Positions 1 through 51,735 of a stretch of 64,000 bases of DNA are shown piece after piece. Each line of letters opens with the position of its first letter. Positions within the stretch are counted from its first letter, which is position 1. This stretch comes from Lophium mytilinum (taxonomy: Eukaryota). The position numbers and the translations under genes were made by a program. The notes under the pieces are model-generated. The model searched no databases. It was not told where the DNA came from and saw nothing but the letters and a program-made list of their open reading frames with translations. Where the stretch lies: the NCBI GenBank assembly GCA_010093605.1, contig MU004181.1, forward strand, positions 496,001 to 560,000. The letters are read 5' to 3'.

Positions 1-765
1 AGCTTTCCCGAAGAGCTGCGCATTGTCATTCTCAAAAACATCGTAGTTTCGGATGACCCGATAAGATCAGAAATATGGACGTCCAAATCACTGGCCTCAA
101 ATACCAGATGGCGGACTTCCGACGAGTACTATGCTAAAGCTCGCAAGTTCAGGTCCGACGTCTTATCAACTTTCGAGACTCCGGGACTATCACACCTTGC
201 GAGAGAGATCTTCTACAAACAAAACACCTTCGATTTCTCCAACATGATACATTTTCATCTCTTCCTCACGGCGACGACGGCCTTGGGGTCCCTTCAGGGA
301 CCCGGAATCGACCAGACGTGGATTAGGCGCATCGTGGTCTGGGTGACGCCTTCGGAGGCGCCTTTCATTAGGAATTGGTGGCAAGATTTGAGAAGGTGTG
401 GAGACCTAGAGAGCTTGGTATTCGTATTGAAACCATCCTTCCCGTACTTTGGCGTACCGCACAACCAGCTGCAAGGAAATCCTTTCCTAGGAGTACTTGC
501 TGACCTAGCTCGTGCTCGGTATGCAGAAAGTGCGCTGAGGCTGCAAGACGATCTGCTGGCAAACAGCGAGGGATTTGTGAAGGAGCCGGGTAGAGTGCGA
601 AGCCCAAAGAGCGTGCTTCAATTCAGCTTGAATGAGAACGATGTGTTCATGCGGCTTGATATGGGAGAGTGTAAGACTAGCCGTACGGAAGAAAGCCTCC
701 GAGACCAGATATTGGATGTGAACCGGAGGTTTGAAAGTGCGACGATGGAGTTGCTTACTGCATAA
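1..765 (+). CDS. F-box-like (DUF7730/2EXR-type) protein, 5' end outside window
   Basis: Frame 1 is open from base 1 (SFPEELRIVILKNIV, an LPxELR-type F-box-like motif; LAREIFYKQNTFDF) and runs into ORF 244..765. Confidence 0.65.
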   Translation, partial: SFPEELRIVILKNIVVSDDPIRSEIWTSKSLASNTRWRTSDEYYAKARKFRSDVLSTFETPGLSHLAREIFYKQNTFDFSNMIHFHLFLTATTALGSLQGPGIDQTWIRRIVVWVTPSEAPFIRNWWQDLRRCGDLESLVFVLKPSFPYFGVPHNQLQGNPFLGVLADLARARYAESALRLQDDLLANSEGFVKEPGRVRSPKSVLQFSLNENDVFMRLDMGECKTSRTEESLRDQILDVNRRFESATMELLTA

Positions 766-1486
766 GTTCTACAGGATGCTCTACGCTTCGTTAGTGTTTT
801 GTAGTAAAGCGTTCATGATGGAATTACTTGCGAATTGAGAATTAAAATGACTGGACATAGATGTAAATGCCAGATATACTGCGCGGGAGTGCCTCCATAC
901 TCACTCTGCGTCTCGTGAATCATCCTGATCCTGATAGGGCTACGCTAAGGGCGGAGCATCTCCCGGTGGGCATTCACTCAACAGCTCAAGCTACAGTTTT
1001 GTCCACCTAGCATGCCGTCAAAGCAAAACACCTGCTCCTTACAACTACCATCACTCTGACCCTCGTCATCCAAATGGCGCACGACCAACAGAACGAGCAG
1101 GCTGCGTGGTTCGCCATTGCAGCAGTGCACCAGCAGACCGGCGCACATGCCCAAGCTCAGCTGCAAAGGATGCAACAAGTGGGGTTGCTGGAGAGTCTTG
1201 AGGTACGTTGAACTTTACCTCTACATTCCTAGGCCATAAATCTGGGCACTTGGACTCGCTACAGCCGGGCTCCAACTTGCTCATTTGACACCACTGTTGG
1301 GAGTAGCCTGGCTACTGAGTAGCCAATCCGTCAAAAGGCAGTCCAATGTGAAGTGCTTGAGCCTCGACACAGCCCTCGGATCTTCGAAGTCCTGATGGGG
1401 TACCCCAAGCAGTGGCGATCCAGTTTCAGCCCAATACCTATGCTTACCAGGTTTAGGCGGTTCTATACTTCGAGTCACCAACACAG

Positions 1487-2077
1487 ATGATTGACCAACT
1501 GCGTTCGACGTCCGATCAATACCTTCAATGCGTCCGCAATATCTTCGTCGACAGATGGGATGAGCTTCTGGCTAGGGATGGCAAACGCAGAGCATTCTAC
1601 TTGACCCTTCTCCGCCTCTCGAACCTCAAGAACGTGTTCTTCATCGCCCTCACACCCCCCGCTCAGGAATACCTCGATTCACTCTTGCTGCAAAGAAATC
1701 CGCCTGCATGGGAACACCTGTCCTTCTTCACCGGTTACAATCGTACACGAATTAGGGCACTGGGCCGAGACGTCGAGAGGTCGTACAAAGGTAGCCTCCA
1801 CGACCCAGCCAACTTCAGGCTGGAGCCCTTCTGGAAGTACCGTCTGGCTGTCGACTGGATTCCACAGAGCGACCGCCATCCTCTCACCGACTGGCACAAT
1901 CAATGGACCACTGAGCATTCTCCTCGGCTCACGCAGTTGGTGAAGCAGTGGACGCAGGAAATTGAGATGAAGTGGATTCAGACCTTTCGGACGCTTCAGG
2001 GACTTCCTGCTGACCCAGGGGTCATACACTGGATCTGGACGGAGGAGTGGGCGGCTTTCGGACGATTTGCAGAGTAG
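1487..2077 (+). CDS. Hypothetical protein, paralog of 2708..3458; last exon, upstream exon(s) uncertain
   Basis: 196-aa ORF; shares VRxIxVxxWD, RxAFY, FIALTP and DWH motifs with the next gene; acceptor-like TTTAG at 1456; possible first exon from ATG 1074 to donor GTACGT 1203. Confidence 0.6.
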   Translation: MIDQLRSTSDQYLQCVRNIFVDRWDELLARDGKRRAFYLTLLRLSNLKNVFFIALTPPAQEYLDSLLLQRNPPAWEHLSFFTGYNRTRIRALGRDVERSYKGSLHDPANFRLEPFWKYRLAVDWIPQSDRHPLTDWHNQWTTEHSPRLTQLVKQWTQEIEMKWIQTFRTLQGLPADPGVIHWIWTEEWAAFGRFAE

Positions 2078-2707
2078 GCGAGAGACACTGCGGATGGGCG
2101 AGGAGGAGAGCACGAGATTCCGGGAGTTGGCACGAGATAGTTGACCTTTGTTTTTTCCAGAGTCCTGGCGCTCGGTATATAGTTTTTGGCAGCTGAACCG
2201 GTAGCCCTAGATACTGCATGGTCACGAAGCCCTTCAAGATATTATCTAAGTCATCAATAACACGTGAACACGTGCTCAATCCGCGATGCATCGCACAAGA
2301 CATTGTATTCGGACACGACTACTCATCTTCACACCCTTCTCAAAGAAGCGCGGTTCATCATTTGCGCTGTAGCCCGCATCCCATGATCCACTTGTTGGCC
2401 CCAACAAACAGCTTTCAGTACATATCCGCATACCCCTTGTACGAAATTCCTCACTGAAACAACTCGCATGTGGCTCAACCAAGCTCTTATCGGCACAGAA
2501 AGCAAGATCTCAAACCTTTCAACCTCAACGTCTACGCCCCTATCCATAATCTCCCAACCAGATTTACGGGGTATATCTATGAGAATCCACACAGCTGGTC
2601 CCACTTGTCGAACATAGCCATCCACAATCCCATACTTTCACACCACAACAATCACCATCAGACCTCGTCTTCCTCTTCATCCACCACCACCAAGAGTTTT
2701 CGGAAAG

Positions 2708-3458
2708 ATGGCCTCCTCTCCATCACAGATTCCCGCTGCTAGCGCCCGTGCTGCCGCCCCTATCGCCGGAACGTCTGCCGCTGCGTCTGCCCCGGAGCCC
2801 GTAAGTTTTCCTTCCCCCCCCCTTTTCCACGCCGATCTGACCATCCCAGGGGCGCCGAATCTACAACACCCCCGCCCACCTCATCAACACCGCTGCCTTC
2901 CTGCCGCCGGCCGCCCACCAAAATGTCCGCACAATCTGGGTCCGCAACTGGGACCAGATGCTCTTCCGCCACGACGTCCGCGCCGCCTTCTACAAAGCCA
3001 CCCTCCTCTTCCCCGATCTCACCCACATCTACTTCATCGCCTTGACGCCCCCCTTGGCCCAGTTTGCACAGGAAGCACCTCCCGTCGCCACCCGCACTGC
3101 CGACTGGCACGTCGACTACTTCCGCGCGCGCAACATGGTCGCGCTCGAGTGTCTACGCGATGACCTGCTCGATGTCGATGCAGCGTCTGGGGACGAGCCG
3201 GTGGAGAAGTACCGCTTTGCGGGGAATTGGCTGCCATGGGAGATGGAGCGGCCCTTTGAGGATTGGCATACTGTGGCGGGGCCGGAGGAGTGGGTGGACC
3301 TGAGGGCCGTGGTGCTGAGGCGGAGCCGTGACCTGGAGTTGGGCTTTTTGCTGTATATGCGGCGGGCGCAGGGGGCGTCGGAGGAGATTGGGGAGTTGAA
3401 GAGGGTGTGGAGAGAAGAGTGGGAGGCGATGGGAAGGAACGTGTTGGGAGGGGAGTAG
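2708..3458 (+). CDS. Hypothetical protein, 2 exons, paralog of 1487..2077
   Basis: ATG 2708; intron GTAAGT(2801)...CTGAC...CCAG(2849) joins in frame to ORF 2958..3458. Confidence 0.7.
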
Positions 3459-5537: not shown

Positions 5538-6811
5538 GGTCTGGCTTTTGAACGACGACGGAGAGAATTTGCTGCTGGGGGAGAGAGAGTTCACGGTCGG
5601 TGCAGGTTTGGGGGTGTCCTGGCGTTGGGGGTTTGGGTGCTTTTTGTACTTTTATATGTATTTGTACTTTGTACTCGTATTTGTATTTTTATGTGGATAA
5701 TACCAACGTCTCCCCTCCTCATCTCTGTAGCCTCTGAATTGGATGGAACGTGACTTGTGATTGACTGAACTATGCCACTGGCAAGAGTGGCTCATCCTAT
5801 TCTTCTTTTCAACCTTGAATGTAAGAAACCGAAGGCCCTAGATTGGCGACCTATCATCCTAACGTAAACTCATGGTTACGGCGCCGGCAGGAGGGACTCA
5901 GGATGCTCATTGTTCCAACTGTAGAGGGTATAATTCGAAAACGTAACTCGGCTGTCCAGTAAACTACTGTGATTTCAGTATTAAAGCGCTGACAGGAGTG
6001 GTTCAAGCCGTCCTTATTTCCATCGATCAATGTAAAAAGCCGAAGAGTCTTACTTGGACGCTTAGAAACCAACCATAAATGCAATTTAGAGAAGTAGCTG
6101 GAGCAGTTCGACCTATTCTCATTTTCAATCATAGATGTAAGGAGCTGCATAGCATGATTTAGCCTACGAATATATGAACATTGATACAGTGCTATAGTGC
6201 CTCTGGAGCAGCTCGAACGGATCCAAATTATCAAGAGTAATTACATGAGAGACTTCCTTCAATCCGAATAACAATTATAATAGAGATGCAGTTGCTGAAA
6301 AGGTGGTCTAGCACTACGGGAGGAACCAAAAACTAGATGTCTTGATGTAATGTAGTCAAGGCCGTGATTCGTGGGCAATCTTCTTGAATTGCTCCAAGAA
6401 TGCTATTCCCATCGCCTTTTTCAAGCATCTCTGAAATGGTGACCATATCGCCAGCGAGCAATGCCGAGATTGCTAGTTTGGTGCCGCTGTCTGGAGGGCC
6501 CGAGTCAGCTGAAGAGCATTCAAATATGAGTCTGCTCTCATCCAAGCGAATTGGATGTTCTCCAACAAGGCTGAGTTAAGAGGCGTGGGCTGCTATCGTG
6601 GTGGTAGCTGAGTAGATCCTTGACGTCATATCGTTGGCGCTTGCGACGCGTAAAAGCTCGTGAAGACGCCTGCGTCAGTGAAGCACGCCAGAAAAACAGG
6701 AGGTTGTAAGATTAGGTGTTCAGGTCCTTCACCAGCCAATTTGCAGTGATAGGCCCCTTCTAGTAGTTGGGGGCGAATGTGTTGCGAAAAAGAAAAGCAC
6801 TGCACTATGCG

Positions 6812-6822
6812 GGGTCGAACCT
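6812..6822 (-). promoter_or_regulatory. Pol III B box downstream of the U6 gene
   Basis: Minus strand AGGTTCGACCC matches GGTTCGANCC just past the U6 terminator; an extragenic downstream B box is known for yeast SNR6. Confidence 0.75.
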
Positions 6823-6828
6823 GGGGCT

Positions 6829-6932
6829 AAAAAAAATTTGAAGCTACTCTTTGATAAAGCGTGTCATCCTTAGTGCAGGGGCCATGCTAATCTTCTCTGG
6901 GTTCGCAACATATTGACCAAATGCCCGAAGGC
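6829..6932 (-). ncRNA. U6: U6 spliceosomal snRNA, variant (ACAGAGA box reads CCAGAGA)
   Basis: Minus strand GCCTTCGGGC ATTTGGTCAAT ATGTTGCGAAC CCAGAGA AGATTAGCATGGCCCCTGCACTAAGGATGACACGC TTTATCAAAGAGTAGCTTCAAA T8: 5' stem-loop, AGC triad, ISL/U4-pairing region and oligo-T terminator all present. Confidence 0.95.
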
Positions 6933-6953
6933 GGGAGGACTTGAAAATAAATT

Positions 6954-6962
6954 AAATATATA
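6954..6962 (-). promoter_or_regulatory. TATA box of the U6 gene
   Basis: TATATATTT starts 30 nt upstream of the predicted +1 G. Confidence 0.75.
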
Positions 6963-8682
6963 CCTTAAAGGTCGTCGCGCAGGGGCCTCACCTCTCACCT
7001 GCCAATCACCCCGCACTACTCGCTTAGAGTATTCTAGCAAGTCTTGTGTTCTTTCTTTTCCGCATGAGGAGTCTCAGTGCATTTTTCGGCCTCCTTTGTG
7101 TTCGCTGCCGCTGCAGCTCGACGCGCGCTCTGCTGCCAGCAACCCTCCGCTACATTGACACTCGCGTGCTGTGCGCGACGAGATGCCTCAACCCCTACAC
7201 AGCAGTCGTAGGTCATTGAAATGTAACCGGCGTATGCTAGCCGAGCATTCTTATCCTTCTCCTGGCATGGACATCATCGAAACTGAAGCGCCAGCTCCGC
7301 ATTCTGCGCGCCACGATCTTCATCTATACTCTCAGTGAGACAGCTGCCCGCATTTGGGGCCACGTCAAATGTTTCAGAGAAGTAGGGTGTTTGTATGCCT
7401 CTCTGGTTGCCACTGCGCGCTGGCTCCTGATTACCACTTTGCTGCCGCCGACTACACCACCATCTTCCTCCCCTTCATCATGTCCAGCATGTGAGCAGCC
7501 TTCTAGAACCACTAAAGCTCACACATCTGATAGCAAATGATTCTTTCGGCAAAGAAACGACTCCAAAAACTCCTCGAATATATCGTCGCGATGACTCCAC
7601 CGGTACCAACCGCCTTGTCACTGCCGAAATTACGACGACGGAGGGCGGAGGGCTATGCAGAGAACGATGGCCCGTAATCATCGTCGAGAATACGGAGCTC
7701 ATTGAACGCCGCTCGTCTGACCCCTCTCTGGACCCTAATCCGGTTCAACATAACTATCTCTTTCCGCGACGCGCAGTCTGCCAAACCTATTCACAGCTCA
7801 GACGAGGTTTGAGTCATTGCACGACGGTCCCATCTATCAGGACTGTCATGCCCTGGCTGGCATGCGGTCTTCCCGTCCAACAAAGGTACAATGATGGCTG
7901 GAACGGGGAACAGCGACGGTAATACGAAGATTATCCATTCAACTTTCCTTCTTTTGGATTTCCCTTGGTTCCTGCGGATAGAAGCGTATCCCGTACGATA
8001 ATGAGAGGGCAAGCCTTAGAAATGGACGTGCAAGAGTTGGCAAGGCAGCGCGATGCGGTCAAAAGGGTTGTTCCAATTGGGTGTACAGGAAGACGCCCTT
8101 AACAGATCGCAGAAGAAGCTGATGAATAAAGCAAATGCTTGCGCTTTGAAGTTTAAGAAGAGGGTTTGGACTGGTTGAGGAGTCGCTCATGCAAAGGCAC
8201 GGGCGGTGATGACGCGAAATTCTTCGTCTTTCCCGGCATTTATTCACCGATGAAGTTTCTGCCATTCGTTTCCAAAACATACTTGTGTCTGCCGCTAATT
8301 TTCACCATCCTCAGCACCTGAAACAGGTTTCTCGTTTTAGGGAATACACAGGAATATCATACCGCGTACCGGATCCAGCTGCCGCCCTCCGCTAGAGAGC
8401 AGAACGTGTTGCAAAGGAAGATCTCCATGCACGCGCAGCACCGTCAGGAAGGCTAGAATGAAGTAGGTAGGGGTGAATGTCCGAATCTAAAGGAATGACA
8501 AGCAGAACGCCGCCTGAAGATGTTTCTCGAGCTAAGGTTTTCTGGCACGCATGTTTTGCATTCCTCCCTCCCAAATTCCAGCAGTGCGTCACGACGCACG
8601 TTCCTCATTCCAGGAAGATGCATATAATTGCTTGTCCCGTCCCAAAATACTGATCGTTGTTCTGGACTTTCGAACATTTGCC

Positions 8683-10485
8683 ATGTTCCTCCCCACTGCC
8701 TTGGGCTTTATAGCCGCCTGCTCTTTCATCTCGACCACTTCGGCCTCCCTACATCGGCGCAACAATCCCGCGCAACCACCATGTCCATATCCAGTAAACG
8801 CTTTCCAATATTCCGGATGCTTCAATGACAGTAATCCGTACGATCGAGCGCTTGGAAAGTTTGAGCCGTTGCAAGAGGGCGACATGACGAATGCGCTGTG
8901 TTGGAAATACTGCAAGGCGAGCCCCATGTCTCCACCCTTCAACGAAAGATCGCATGACTGACCAATTTGTCACAGGCAAACAATTACGCGTTCGCTGGAA
9001 CGGAGGCTGGTTATCAATGTACGTGATAGGCGTCCACAGATCCTGCCAAGGTCATACGCTGACGATCTAAGGCTTCTGCGGAACTCAGCTGCCGGCAACC
9101 ACTCAGTATCCAGACTCAACTTGCAACACGACTTGTCAAGGTAATTCTCTGGAGAAGTGCGGAGGTGACGCTCGCCTTTCAGTGTATATAGATCCGACCT
9201 TCCCACAGATCAACGCCACGAGCAGTAATTACGTCTCAAGAGGTTGCTACACCGATGGAAACAGCCGGGCTCTGGATTATCCACAAGACCAGCTCGATGG
9301 ATCGATGATGACTGTGGAGCTTTGCCTAAACACATGTGGTTCGAAAGGATTTTCCTTAGCGGCAGTGGAATTCGCGAGTCAATGCTGTAAGCTGGATCTC
9401 TCCAGTCTTCATCATCTGGTTTATGGAGCACTTCGAACTAACTTCGTAAAGACTGTGATGTTACCCTCGGGCCTTCGGGTCAGCCTACAGGATCCTCGAA
9501 CTGTAGCATGGCGTGCAATGGGAACCCAGACGAAAAATGCGGCGGTGAACTCTTCATGAACTTGTATGAGGCTAAGCTGTTGGAATCGACGGAGCCTTGC
9601 GCACCTCCGGTGTCCTCTTCCAGCTCGTCCTCGTCGTCGACTACGTCGTCCAGCTCAATCTCTTCCTCGGTTTCGCCAAGTTCTACCTCCTCCAGCTCCT
9701 CCAGCTCCTCTAGCTCCTCTAGCTCCTCTAGCTCGTCCCGATCATCTAGTTCCTCTAGCTCGTCAAGTTCTTCAACTTTATCGAGTTCCTCCTCCAGTTC
9801 TTCTCGCTCATCCAGCTCGTCTATTAGTTCGTCGAGTTCATCGAGTTCCTCGTCTAGCTCTTCTAGCTCCTCTCGCTCGTCCAGTTTGTCAAGCTCATAC
9901 AGCTCATCGTCTATCCCCACAACATCGTCTTCCTCAAGCTCGTCTTCACTATCTAGCTCCAGCTCCAGCTCCAGCTCCAGCTCCAGCTCTAGCTCTCAGG
10001 TTCCTCCAAGCAGCACGTCATCATCTTCTTCAAGCCAACGCAGGCCACCACCGCCCTCAAAAACAAAACCCTGGCCTCCACCACCAACACGGCCTCCGCA
10101 TCCTCCCCCACCCCCGATGTGTCTCTGCTCTGGCCCTCGTTCTTGGCGCGGCGCCAAGCTTCCTTGCGTCGGATGCAACGATAATCCACGACAATCCTGG
10201 GAGTTCCCGTTCAAGCTTTTCACATCAAAGTGGACCGACAGATGCCCGGTGTACACGGCGGAGCATCTCATCAAGGCATGCCTCGACGCATGCGAATGGC
10301 AGTACGAGAAATGCTCCAAGGGCGCGGATGCGGACGAAGAATGTACCGCGTGCGAGGAGCAGTATCGGCGGTGCAAGAAGGCGAATCAGCACCTGCGGTA
10401 TCATGGAGAGTGTGGGGGTAGGGGTCCATGGGATCAGGAACCATGCGAGGATGAGGACGAAGACAAGATGAGCTCTGAGTGGTAG
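8683..10485 (+). CDS. Secreted WSC-domain protein (2 WSC domains, Ser-rich stalk, Pro-rich linker, Cys-rich C-terminus); 4 exons
   Basis: Signal peptide MFLPTALGFIAACSFISTTSA; WSC motifs YSGCFND..MTNALCWKYC..FAGTEAGYQCFCG..C..C.GN..EKCGG and YVSRGCYTD..MTVELCLNTC..AAVEFASQCYC; introns 8917-8975 (GC-AG), 9019-9071 and 9387-9451 give one open frame. Confidence 0.9.
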
Positions 10486-33707: not shown

Positions 33708-33981
33708 TGCGTTGCGCCGCTGGTCTGTCAAGGTGTAGGCAAGTACAACGATCATTCACGAGGGAAGGGACAGCAAACCTTCTTCGAACTGGGGAACAGG
33801 AGACCGAAAGGTCGAACGGGGCCAATCTTGTACGCCCTCAGGTGATGGTGTACATAACTGACACCGTTCAACCTTGCGTTCTCCTGTTCCCCAGTTCGAA
33901 GAAGGTTTGCTGTCCCTTCCCTCGTGAATGATCGTTGTACTTGTCTACGCTCGCCTTGGTGGACCAGCGGTTAGCAACGCA
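33708..33981 (+). repeat. Long inverted repeat / candidate hairpin RNA
   Basis: 33740-33803 is the exact reverse complement of 33880-33943 (64 bp); pairing extends imperfectly inward to a very small loop at ~33841 and outward to 33708/33981. Confidence 0.95.
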
Positions 33982-34985: not shown

Positions 34986-37068
34986 GATGGGATTGCGCGG
35001 GCGATCGAGGGACGCTGGCTCCTCCAACCGCCAGCTCCTGCAACCGCTCCATTAGGAAGCTGACTGACTGGAGTGTAGATTGAGCTTCCTCTAAGCTGGG
35101 CGGAGGGTTGAAGGGCGGATGTAACGGCGGTGGAGGTGGGAATCGATGCGGAGGTGGACAGGATGAGAGAAAGGCGAGGATCGCGCGTAGGTTCGGAGGG
35201 AGACTGGACATACGAAGCTGTTGACGACTGAGATGACTGATATAATTGTGATTCGAGATTCCTCTTCGTGTTGTGAGAATTGATGGTGTCGATGTCGCGA
35301 GTCGGTAGCTACGGAGCAGCCCATGGGACGGGGACTGAGGAGAAGATACCTGATCGAGACTCCGAGGGGAGCCTAGTATGACCGGAAATATGTTTCAGAA
35401 GAGATATCTATGGATGAGCTGCATGATGAGAAGGGCTTGCGTTGGCGTCGTGTGTTTTCACACCATCACAAGACGCGTCGCGTCAACATGCAATTTTGGA
35501 TGCTGCAGCAACACATAGGGCTTGTTGTTCAGTACCAGTGAGCCTCATAGTTCGCATCTCTTACTGCCTGGTACAGGGCTTCAGAGACAGACTGCATCAA
35601 CATAGAGTAGCGCATGCTTTCATCTTCGAAACAACACCACGCTAGCTCACCACGAGCATAGCAAGCAAATTCGCAACAATCAAACTAAACAATCAACCAA
35701 AGAAGGATGAAGCTCTTCTTCAACTACCCGCATATAGCGCGTGAGTCAATGAAAAGACAGTTGCTCAAAGAGCGTGCTCGGAGAGCGGTGCAACAAAAAA
35801 TTGTGCCAGGCGGATCCTACTCCCCCCCCCGGGCAGGGGATCTCTGCAGTCCATAGCAGACCGTAACGCATGGTGCAATGCAAGACAGCCTACCAGGAGA
35901 TCGACTTCGTGAGCTCGATCTCCCCAGCTAACCCCAACCAGGGTGGGTGAGTATGAGGAGTTAAGGATTGGGGGGCGACGGAGCCTATATAGTAGAAAAT
36001 ATTCAGGCACGGGCCACGGCGCTAGCTGACTAATCCGCCTGTTGGCCAATAAGAGGCTCTGGAGGTGACTGGGCGGCAGTGGTGATGTGCGGCGTGGAAT
36101 GTGGTGGAATGTGGTGGAATCTGTGGAGCGGAGGGAAGTTGGTCTGGACACTTCACCGTAAATTCTGTCACAGGTAGGCGACTGGTCATTGTGACCCAAA
36201 TACCTGAGTTGAGTTACACTATCTCAGGCTCCTGTTATGACTTGAAGCTTTAGGACAAGTATACCAGAAGGGGCGTTCATTATCATCCAGCTGGCTAGAG
36301 GGTCTTGGGATCGCTGGAATCAATTTGGCGGCAACGACAGGACTCCCAAATCGAACATCAGGACTCGTCTGACGTAATTCACTTTGACCATCCCTTCAAT
36401 ATTATTTACAGCTGCTACTCCTCTGTGTTCAATGGTACTTACAATAGGGCACTATCAAGAGAGACTCGAGGTCTGACGAAGCCGCGCAATAGCAATGGCG
36501 CTATTACCAACATCAGGCACTATAATTTACCCAATGCACACGGTCTACGTCTGTAGTCACATCCCGAGTAAATTCGTCTGGCATTACCATCTATACGTGC
36601 CGTCACTTGAGTCCATCCGGGGGCGCCTTGAACTCCTGCGTTCCTCTCCGCCACCCGGCCGCGAAGCAACGCACTTCCAATGTGCAATGCATAGCCCATT
36701 CTTCATTGTAGAAGGCCAAGAAATGAAGGCTTTGGCAGGGGCGATGTTGTTGCAAATCGGACAGTCAATCTGATAGATATGAGAAGGATGCTTAGAAGCC
36801 GAAGAACTCTACTTTACTTAGCATAATAAGGGGACTACTAGCTAAAAACCCTTGGCTCCTCCACCCACACTCTTCCTATCGTCTAATGTTCTAATTGGCT
36901 GGTGCGGCCAGGCCGAGTCCTGGGAGTCCCCTCTTAGGTGAATAAAGGAGCGAGCAGAGGCCGCGCGGCAGATGGGCCAAAATTAAATGAAAGAAGCCTC
37001 TATAAATTAGGGCTTCAAGAGATCTAGCCTCCCCGTAGGCAAAACAGGCCGCCACACAACGGAACGAG

Positions 37069-38609: not shown

Positions 38610-40110
38610 ATGGACGCGTTAGTGGCGGTCGCCGCTGGGGTCCAGTTCATCGACTGCGGTTCTGGACTCGTCAAAAAAATCCGGAAAGCTTGAAGATTGG
38701 TCAAGGAGAAAAAGAACGAGCAGTCCGAGCTTCTTGCTGTTGCGCAAGACATACAGTCGATAACAACAGAGCTTGTATCTTCCCTTACCGCATTCGACTC
38801 TCTCGGAGTCGCCACAGCAGATGTTGCAGCCTTGCGACAGTTCGCGGTAACGTCGCAGACCTTGGCCGGCAGTCTTGTTGACCTCTTAAACAAGATCAAC
38901 GTGCCCAATCCGGATAACAAGATATTGATCAAGGTCCGAGATGTGATCAGAGTCATGCAAAAGAAGGGCCAAGTGGACGTCTTAGAGCAGCGTCTATCGA
39001 GACTGTGCGCTCAGATTATTCTTCACATCCACCTCGCTGTCGTGTAAAAAAATCCGCTTCTTTATGGGCAGACACATGCTAACTCATGTCCATAGTCCAG
39101 CGCTATCCTCGAGCATCCAGTCAATGAAAGATGACTATGACACAGCATTCGCTGCCATTTTGTTCCGATTAGATGGTCTGAGCCGGAACGCAGCGGCCCA
39201 AACAGTTGCGCCTCTTGTCGATCAACCCATTTTGAACGGAACTCTAGATGCTCTTCGGGAGATCGCAACCGGATTAGAAAAACTAAACCAAGCTCGGCAA
39301 CAGCGTTCCGTGCTTCAGAGCTTGAGTTTTGTGCAGATGGATAGCCGCAAATGCACCATAGTTGAGTCACACGAGGCCACCTTGGAGTGGGTATGGGAGC
39401 TGTACGAGAAATGGCTAGGCGATGGCGTGTTCTGGGTGAAGGGCAAATTTGGATCGGGGAAGTCCCTGTTGATGAAGTTTCTCGCCGAGCATACGAAGAC
39501 CGAGCAATATTTCAGACGTTGGGCCAGGGAGAACAACATTCTGATCGTGGCGCACTACTTCGACTACCAAGGTAATGCAATTGGGCGGTCACAGGAAGGG
39601 CTACCGCCGACAGTGCTTTTCCAAATATTGCAGAAGCGTCCAGAACTCATCCCGACAATCTGCGCCAACCGTCTTCAATCGGACCCCCACGGAGTCACAA
39701 CTTGGACACTACATGAGTTATCGGAGTGTTTCTTGAATATTGAAAAGATTCCCGATCTCCCAATCTGCATATTCATCGATAGCCTGGACGAGTACGATAA
39801 TTCCCTCAGCGATTTGTTACGCCTCGTCCTAAAGTTAAGCCAATCGCCCGCTATAAAGCTATGTGTCTCGAGTCGTCAGCTTAATGAGTGCGAAAAGGCT
39901 TTCCGGAATTCGAGTAGCATTTGCGTTCAGGACCATACCCATCGAGACATCGCCCGCTACGTGAAAGACAATCTCACCCAGGACTTTGAACCGCTGGAGC
40001 ATGAAGACCCGAGTGGCTTTGTTAGCACACTTGTAAAGTGAGTTCAAGAGAAGGCACAAGGGGTTTTCTTTTGGGCCTACTTGATAGTGCGCTCGCTACG
40101 GGATGCTGTC
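38610..40110 (+). pseudogene. NACHT-domain NLR-like gene with N-terminal helical (SesA/HeLo-like) domain; two in-frame TGA, 3' truncated
   Basis: MDALVAVAAGVQFIDCGSGLV N-terminal motif; intron ~39043-39097; Walker A FWVKGKFGSGKS; Walker B IFIDSLDE; KLCVSSR; EKAQGVFFWAYLIVRSLRD after the second stop; TGA at 38691 and 40039. Confidence 0.85.
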
Positions 40111-50061: not shown

Positions 50062-51735
50062 TCACCAACTGTCGAAATTTCCGAAACCACCAGATTTGGC
50101 TTTCTTCTTCGCCGGTTGCTCGATTTCATCCCAGTCCCCAATGATCTCGTCTTCCGCCTTGGACGCTCCGCCATCTTGCATCGCCGCTTTCAGGTATTTC
50201 CCTACTCCCGGTCCACCTCCTGCAGCTTCGACCTTTCCGTCAGGTCTTATCCTCTTCCCCGTCCATGTGGTCTTATCATCCTCTCTTCCTCCTTGTAGCC
50301 GGATCTCCTCCTCTTCTCTCTCCTTGTCCTCTTTCTCCGTTCGCTCCTTTCGGAACTCCTCAAATGGATCCACAAAAACTACGACATCCAGAATCATGAG
50401 ATCCTCATCTGGTCTATCCTTGTCGCCGGTTTTGGCGTTCTCCATGGCCGTGAGAGTGGTATCCAGTCCTCCAACAACCTTAGCAAAGATGGAGTGCTTC
50501 CTATCCAGATGCGACGCTTGCCGATATAGGATGAAGAATTGCGACGTGTTTGTGTTCTTGCCCTTGTTCGCCATGCTTATGACTCCTCTCGCGTTATGAA
50601 GTAGTGGGCCCTCGAGCTCGTCGTTGAATGGCTTGCCCCATGTGCTTTGCCCACCTTTTCCAGTGCCTGTTGGATCACCACCCTGGATCATGAAATTCTT
50701 GATATTTCGGTGAAAAACGGTACCCTTGTAGTATCCCTTTTTCGCCAATTGTACAAAGTTCCAGACCGCTTTCGGAGCGAATTCGGGGAGGAGTTCGATG
50801 TTGAGATCGCCGAGAGAGGTAGAGATGCGCGCGTAGCCTTTCTGCTTTACGCGCTTCGGTCGCAACATGTAGTCTTCCTCAGATAGAACGGCGCGCTCGG
50901 CGGAGGTGTGGGGTGTCCATCCCGTACTGGTGAAGGACGCAGCAGCCTTGCCAGTGGTGTATTGGGCGGCATTGTAAGGCTTCGGTTTCGACCCTTGCGC
51001 TGCGGAGTGTGTTGCGGTCGCATTCTTCGCTTTCGCGATAGCTACAGCATCATTACTCGCCTGCGACTTTGCCTGCCTGTCTGCGCGAGCTTTCGCGACA
51101 GCTTCCTTGGCGCGCAAAATCTTCCCAGCACTCCCGAGCGCGTCTATATTCACGTTGCTCTCATCCGGGGCCTGCGCCGTAGTCTCGCCATCTTTGATAT
51201 GTTTGAATGCGCTCAGGTCCCGCGACTCGATGTTCTGCGGATCTTGCAACGTTATGATATCTTTCCGCGTAAACTCATCGTCGCTGACCAGATCGCGCCA
51301 GTTCTTCGCCTTGATGTTCAGTCGCTCGACCGTGTCCCAGGCAAACACGTTTCCGGTATTCTTCAGCGTGACGATGTGAGTATTATCCGTGAAGACCTTG
51401 TACGTGACCGGGTCCACGTACTCGTTGTCCTCGTTCTTCGCGAAGTGGAGGGTGATGAGGTCGGCGCGTTTCAGCGGCGCCCCGTCAATGGGATTCGTGC
51501 CATGCTTCTGGAGCCAAGTGAGGATGTGGGTGAGGTCGAATATGGTGCCCGCGGCGGTGCAGACGGGATCCGTGAAGGGCTGGAGGGAGACGGCGCAGAA
51601 GTTGAAGGGAAGGCGCTTGAATGAGGAGCCGACGCCCTTCGACTTGGAGGCGTTGAAGCCGCGGCTGGTGCCAAACGAGTCTTCAGAGGCCCATTCCGAG
51701 TGAGTGATATAGAGCTTGTCGGTATTTTTGCCCAT
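50062..51735 (-). CDS. PPIL2: Peptidyl-prolyl cis-trans isomerase-like 2 (Cyp60/PPIL2 type; U-box plus cyclophilin)
   Basis: MGKNTDKLYITHSEW and KRLPFNFCAVSLQPF (U-box region); FHRNIKNFMIQGGDPTGTGKGG and SMANKGKNTNTSQFF; C-terminal FGNFDSW. Confidence 0.95.
   Translation of the reverse strand: MGKNTDKLYITHSEWASEDSFGTSRGFNASKSKGVGSSFKRLPFNFCAVSLQPFTDPVCTAAGTIFDLTHILTWLQKHGTNPIDGAPLKRADLITLHFAKNEDNEYVDPVTYKVFTDNTHIVTLKNTGNVFAWDTVERLNIKAKNWRDLVSDDEFTRKDIITLQDPQNIESRDLSAFKHIKDGETTAQAPDESNVNIDALGSAGKILRAKEAVAKARADRQAKSQASNDAVAIAKAKNATATHSAAQGSKPKPYNAAQYTTGKAAASFTSTGWTPHTSAERAVLSEEDYMLRPKRVKQKGYARISTSLGDLNIELLPEFAPKAVWNFVQLAKKGYYKGTVFHRNIKNFMIQGGDPTGTGKGGQSTWGKPFNDELEGPLLHNARGVISMANKGKNTNTSQFFILYRQASHLDRKHSIFAKVVGGLDTTLTAMENAKTGDKDRPDEDLMILDVVVFVDPFEEFRKERTEKEDKEREEEEIRLQGGREDDKTTWTGKRIRPDGKVEAAGGGPGVGKYLKAAMQDGGASKAEDEIIGDWDEIEQPAKKKAKSGGFGNFDSW

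Follow-up and report, generated by a model that had tools for sequence, protein, structure and literature searches.

A U6 snRNA gene reading CCAGAGA in place of ACAGAGA, with intact core and gene signals, in a 64-kb stretch of fungal DNA

Introduction

The ACAGAGA motif of the U6 snRNA is called perfectly conserved and essential in a review (PMC5855946), and a survey of fungal genomes reports that every position of the ACAGA box was 100% conserved in 240 species, 230 Saccharomycotina and 10 outgroups (PMC10581693). According to the same survey, the methylated central A of the box faces intron position +4; if so, the first A of the box stands opposite +6. The nonamer recognised by METTL16 is given as UACAGARAA (PMC10915109), and the contacts described for the METTL16–U6 structure of S. 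pombe are those with the target A and the bases after it (PMC12371086). S. cerevisiae is listed as being without METTL16 (PMC10581693). In this yeast the U6-A47G allele is reported as viable; it becomes lethal at 16 °C only when combined with a cwc2 mutation, the combination being synthetically sick (PMC4081067).

A natural variant of the box is described for Cyanidioschyzon merolae, a red alga with a reduced spliceosome, in which U replaces the central A that is the m6A target (PMC10581693). Human vU1 and other animal snRNA variants are imperfect copies with intact promoters, possibly transcribed and differing in splice-site pairing; they exist beside abundant canonical copies, and the account of them gives expression measurements for U1, U2, U4 and U5 variants, not for U6 (PMC8457000).

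Here we describe a U6 gene in a 64,000-nucleotide stretch of DNA, referred to below as the window. It has in common with canonical fungal U6 genes (RF00026; the SNR6-type Pol III genes of yeast) the match to the full model, the stem-loops, the AGC triad and the terminator, as well as a TATA element at −30 and a B-box-like element downstream, but it reads CCAGAGA where they read ACAGAGA, has one extra nucleotide and is diverged over about 8 nt upstream. Like the algal U6 it is a natural box variant, although here the first A is changed to C, and the copy, a candidate for the working U6, belongs to an intron-rich ascomycete. The changed position is the one hit in the yeast A47 mutants; the yeast allele is a laboratory change to G in S. 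cerevisiae, whereas ours is a natural change to C, accompanied by a neighbouring change and an insertion. Unlike the animal variants, it is known from its gene sequence within 64 kb. To our knowledge, U6atac of the minor spliceosome is the only further RNA of the U6 type for which recognition of another donor class is established; it has its own partners (U4atac and U12) and a different box. The RNA encoded in the window keeps the U4- and U2-pairing sequence of canonical U6 instead, and an identity as U6atac was rejected, since competition within clan CL00009 in cmscan assigned it to U6.

Results and discussion

The gene and its transcription signals

Searching the window with cmscan, we found U6 (RF00026) on the minus strand at positions 6832–6932, with a score of 70.0 bits where the gathering threshold is 44 (E 1.2e-15) and an alignment covering model positions 1–105 of 105. 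It was the sole family above its gathering score in the 64-kb window, and a more permissive Rfam scan of the window gave no second U6. The initial annotation had called an intact U6 gene at this place and named the Rfam model as a way of checking it; the call is borne out by this single full-length match and by the Pol III signals around it.

The TATA near −30, the T-run terminator and the downstream B box of fungal U6 genes, assigned by their familiar consensus motifs, are all present (Table 1). The element GGTTCGACCCC agrees well with the B box consensus of Pol III genes, and it belongs to no tRNA gene, as ARAGORN found none in the 64-kb window. The 10 nt of the 5′ stem-loop are identical in the complete fungal U6 described below. 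An mRNA-type intron inside the gene was considered and rejected, because the 5′ stem-loop lies at the normal distance and leaves no room for one. Positions 6829–6932 are a real, intact-looking fungal U6 spliceosomal RNA gene.

Table 1. Features of the U6 gene and of the U1-like gene (positions in the window)
Feature	Position	Strand	Basis or remark
U6 snRNA gene, transcribed region including terminator T run	6829..6932	−	RF00026 and sequence reading
TATA-like element TATATATTTAA, −30 to −20	6952..6962	−	sequence reading
5′ stem-loop, 3-bp stem and UUCG loop	6923..6932	−	aligned to model positions 1–17
Divergent linker directly upstream of box, including possible small hairpin and extra C	6900..6911	−	cmscan alignment
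ACAGAGA-box equivalent, reads CCAGAGA	6894..6900	−	sequence reading and cmscan alignment
Core: U4/U2-pairing segment and AGC triad, internal stem-loop to ACACGC	6859..6893	−	identity with L007 and Rfam consensus
T8 Pol III terminator	6829..6836	−	sequence reading
B-box-like element GGTTCGACCCC, 7 nt past T run	6811..6821	−	sequence reading
U1-like snRNA gene with apparent 5′ end	35761–35954	−	TATATA at 35986–35991

The core and the 3′ tail

For comparison, metagenomes were scanned with the 3′ part of the U6 gene as pattern, which returned seven loci. By cmscan one of them is a complete U6 with the canonical box (L007; 82.3 bits), having AAUACAGAGA at the box and TATATATA at −30; a motif of the TTCGAA type follows its terminator. 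Another (L005, 987–1027, minus strand) contributes, by blastn, just the final 41 nt of a U6 gene, as the contig stops before the box is reached, and has GCGTTCGAATC, again of the TTCGAA type, downstream of its terminator. Both loci share their gene architecture with the U6 gene of the window; the remaining five of the seven were not U6. A scan of GTDB genomes with the 5′ linker specific to the window gave four bacterial contigs that matched only 19–20 nt of the pattern, and these were discarded as chance.

The gene and L007 are identical over the stretch that begins with CAGAGA, contains the AGC triad and the internal stem-loop and ends with ACACGC, and here the gene also follows the upper-case Rfam consensus save at two places where L007 differs as well. 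In blastn, 57 of 58 positions agreed with L007 over 6842–6899, the single mismatch lying in the 3′ tail; the tail agreed with the L005 fragment at 40 of 41. Judging by the sequences, L005 comes from a closer relative than L007 does. With a core equal to that of L007 and a tail nearly equal to that of L005, there is no sign of general decay. When the RNA was folded alone, neither the known telestem nor the ISL was cleanly recovered, a result that carries no weight in either direction.

The altered box and the linker before it

The box agrees with ACAGAGA at six of seven positions. The mismatch is the first position, where the Rfam consensus and L007 have A and the gene has C (6900); position 6901 is C, too, and there, ahead of the box, the cmscan alignment needs an insertion of one C. 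These base calls and coordinates had been given correctly in the initial annotation, as both our reading of the sequence and the cmscan alignment confirm. The change reaches further than the two substitutions named there: in the alignment the model string UUGgAACgAUA faces a different string of 12 nt with one insertion, and about 8 nt upstream of CAGAGA (model AACgAUA) depart from the consensus. The last three positions before CAGAGA, AUA in the Rfam consensus and in L007, are AAC plus the extra C, and the AAC of the model slightly further upstream is UGC. The clustering of the changes at the end that binds the 5′ splice site by pairing, beside an intact core and intact Pol III signals, was thus seen rightly, but a count of two bases understates it. 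The usual fungal sequence quoted there was close without being exact, since L007 has ...AACAAUA before CAGAGA and the Rfam consensus gAUA. The deviation forms one contiguous block adjoining an otherwise unaltered RNA and its gene signals.

Between the 5′ stem-loop and the box lies a linker of 22 nt, which agrees with that of L007 at only 12 of 22 positions in the cmscan alignments; this suggests that the linker is variable among fungi anyway. Within it GUU-GCG-AAC could form a small hairpin. In yeast, the stretch directly upstream of the box is described as a small stem-loop in the tri-snRNP and the B complex (PMC5855946), and the possible hairpin could be comparable to it. RIP was rejected as a source of the changes, which go towards C and not from C to T.

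As regards function, the changed position would be the least critical and most tolerant of the box, going by the viability of yeast A47G. By base pairing, and in agreement with the initial annotation, the usual U at +6 would be a poorer partner for the altered end, and G at +6 and +7 a better one. The METTL16 nonamer UACAGARAA is missing, as had been claimed for this gene; the corresponding stretch CCCAGAGAA matches it at 7 of 9 positions, which makes methylation of the central A doubtful. A text search of the literature found no description of a CCAGAGA U6, the matches listed concerning unrelated primers and microRNAs by their titles, and a search for printed fungal U6 sequences gave nothing relevant, again judged by title.

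Since the variant contains a CCC homopolymer, an error of assembly or sequencing at the run of C was considered. Of 94 31-mers sampled from positions 6400–7400, fractions of 0.99 and 0.98 were present in the Logan contigs of two runs, which represent one sample, possibly the source of the window DNA. Another 21 runs held about 4 of the 94 sampled words each and one more next to none, a share that is meaningless as evidence. The contigs of the first two runs are independent and hold nearly all sampled words of this 1-kb stretch, and dropping one C would still leave a non-canonical sequence; we therefore regard an error as very unlikely.

Donor sites in the window

Candidate introns were collected as GT...AG stretches of 42–129 nt that join two open frames, each 150 nt or longer, contain a CTRAY branch motif and have a stop codon soon after the donor. 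The heuristic yielded 162 different donors as candidates, of which many are false, and the number expected for each donor class was derived from how often it occurs when the 7120 GT sites of the window are all counted (Table 2). Two further approaches, one anchored on the branch site (817 candidates) and the other an EM search for motifs in 59 candidate groups, were too noisy and were left out.

Table 2. Donor classes among the 162 candidate donors of the window
Donor class	Observed	Expected
GT[AG]AGT	4	0.98
GTA[CT]GT	6	1.32
GTNNGG	7	10.8
GTNNGGG	2	3.05
GT[AG]AGG	0	1.55

In this small and noisy sample of 64 kb, the enriched donors are the ordinary GTRAGT and GTAYGT forms, with T rather than G enriched at +6. 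The class that the variant would favour, GTNNGG, was not enriched among the 162 heuristic candidates. The statement in the initial annotation that introns of this region use ordinary donors agrees with these counts.

A U1-like gene 29 kb away

A further result of the permissive Rfam scan was a U1-like sequence at 35761–35931 on the minus strand, which scores 29.9 bits on RF00003, where gathering requires 69.5; its E-value was 0.001 for the full 64 kb and 1.1e-5 when 701 nt were searched. It has a stem-loop I loop CUCACGAAG of the U1-70K type, a stem-loop II loop CAUUGCAC of the U1A type, an Sm-like site AAUUUUUUG and a terminal 3′ hairpin; its folding (z of −1.9) was uninformative. The 5′ end of the model remained unaligned. 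However, AUACUCACC is found 23 nt upstream of the match and 37 nt after a TATATA, and is the apparent 5′ end of the gene; the 5′ arm is then about 15 nt longer than in the model. Compared with the canonical AUACUUACC, it has one mismatch (ACUCACC), which puts a C opposite intron position +3. In the fungal survey ACUUACC was invariant in 236 of 236 U1 candidates (PMC10581693), and our text search of the literature found nothing on point for an ACUCACC U1.

The U6 gene and the U1-like gene, 29 kb apart, both deviate in bases that touch the 5′ splice site. Going by the pairing, the two variants seem to disagree on the type of donor: A3 of the U1-like RNA pairs with U at +6, and the U6 would favour G there. 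The enriched donors of the window have mixed bases at +3, which do not match the C that the U1-like gene has opposite this position. The U1-like gene, with its low score and odd 5′ arm, is in keeping with a genome that has imperfect copies of snRNAs.

Interpretation of the altered U6

The identity of the gene, its signals, its intact core and its altered box are established. What the gene does is a matter of weighing, and our preferred reading, which we hold at about an even chance, is that it is a divergent, transcribable paralogue which, should it act at all, would serve as a general U6 of slightly reduced strength. Its end pairing with the 5′ splice site would have drifted, with A changed to C at the first position of the box, U to C before it, one nucleotide added and the linker upstream diverged. 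The gene most likely sits beside a canonical U6 elsewhere in the genome of a Mytilinidion-like Dothideomycete. Several U6 genes are usual in filamentous ascomycetes. That the 64 kb contain no other U6 counts against this reading. Since changes in the box were absent from 240 fungal species, one deviant copy is more likely a priori than a change of the whole lineage in U1 as well as U6, and the presence of a second deviant snRNA gene, the U1-like one, fits a genome with variant snRNA copies. As the TATA element, the terminator and the B box are intact, the gene is probably transcribed, and any transcript would enter the ordinary U4/U6.U5 pathway, since nothing has changed in the segments pairing with U4 and U2. 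In that pathway it would serve as a general U6 whose pairing with the common U at +6 and beyond is slightly weakened; it would probably be left unmethylated by the METTL16 orthologue, and it would found no separate spliceosome. If it is merely a deviant extra copy, the gene is an ordinary by-product of gene duplication.

The same block of changes may also mark a young pseudogene, silent or giving an unstable RNA, in which a single complex mutation hit the linker and the box too recently for further decay. A template switch creating the GUU-GCG-AAC hairpin would be an example of such a mutation. A single event would leave such a pattern, in which the changes are contiguous over about 12 nt and include an insertion, and the U1-like gene, with its 29.9 bits against 69.5 and its longer 5′ arm, suggests that there are degenerate snRNA copies in the region; in addition, human variant or defective snRNAs are described as mostly less stable and of low abundance (PMC8457000). 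The promoter, the terminator, the B box and about 90 nt of the RNA are, however, undamaged, and the position hit is one that yeast tolerates; we consider a pseudogene somewhat unlikely. The intact signals and core would also be expected if the gene were the main or only U6 of a Mytilinidion-like lineage, in which a tolerated change of the first position became fixed and the METTL16 nonamer was lost. Many fungi have one locus per snRNA, as one paper states, and if that holds here, the gene is the working U6. The changed position tolerates mutation in yeast, and the U1-like gene, being deviant at its splice-site-pairing end as well, could mean that recognition was retuned throughout the lineage. 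Recognition of the 5′ splice site by U6 would then be slightly unlike that in all fungi surveyed so far. Against this stand the invariance of the ACAGA box in 240 of 240 fungal species and of the U1 ACUUACC in 236 of 236 candidates (PMC10581693), the ordinary look of the donors in the window, where T and not G is enriched at +6, and the mismatch between the U1 C opposite +3 and the mixed +3 bases of the enriched donors. On balance a main or only U6 of this kind is unlikely, and it is still less probable, and in our view doubtful indeed, that the CCAGAGA gene is a working, possibly the only, U6 and the ACUCACC U1-like gene at the same time a working U1 of this Dothideomycete. If both did work, this fungus would be the first intron-rich one known with altered bases for splice-site pairing in U1 as well as U6 and with the METTL16 nonamer given up, a natural experiment on the limits to which recognition of the 5′ splice site can be retuned.

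The initial annotation had proposed a specialised U6 defining a parallel spliceosome, in which the CC end would select a distinct class of introns with G at +6 and +7, possibly together with a variant U1. It is true that the changes are confined to the end that pairs with the substrate, and that a second snRNA gene with a changed splice-site-pairing end is found in the same window. However, the parts pairing with U4 and U2 are unchanged and identical to those of L007, which gives no indication of a separate set of partners; no GTNNGG(G) class is visible or enriched among the candidate donors of the window; the changed position is tolerated in yeast, where A47G is viable; and the U1-like RNA (A3, for U at +6) and the U6 (for G at +6) point to different types of donors. 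We find this proposal barely credible and return to a divergent paralogue of the general U6. Because the box is called perfectly conserved (PMC5855946) and was invariant in the 240 fungal genomes of the survey (PMC10581693), a naturally occurring and expressed U6 whose box starts with C and which lacks the METTL16 nonamer would nevertheless be informative.

Other features of the window

The 557-aa U-box cyclophilin encoded at 50062–51735 had its best named match in Mytilinidion resinicola, with 97% identity over 88% of the query, followed by Lepidopterella (79%), Zopfia (78%) and Glonium (75%), which places the source of the window among the Dothideomycetes, near Mytilinidion. At 33790–33893 the mir-H1 model matched weakly on both strands (37 and 32 bits, gathering score 97); this is presumably a palindromic, hairpin-forming stretch and no true member of the family. 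Within 1–3458 of the plus strand, the open frames 1–765, 1487–2077 and 2958–3458 share ...F(F/Y)IALTPP... motifs and a W-rich C-terminal part, and their sequences suggest a lineage-specific gene family with paralogues in tandem. A frame of 325 aa at 9508–10485 on the plus strand is dominated by a long serine run, after which it is first proline-rich and then cysteine-rich at its end, and its product may be a secreted or wall protein; an acidic repeat frame lies on the opposite strand. At 39064–40041 on the plus strand there is an open frame with an NPHP3_N / AAA_16 NTPase domain of the NLR type. Such domains are typical of variable fungal gene families. Housekeeping genes, namely those for the cyclophilin Cyp8, an alcohol dehydrogenase and an EF-Tu-domain protein, lie near this frame, so that the region around it is not obviously accessory.
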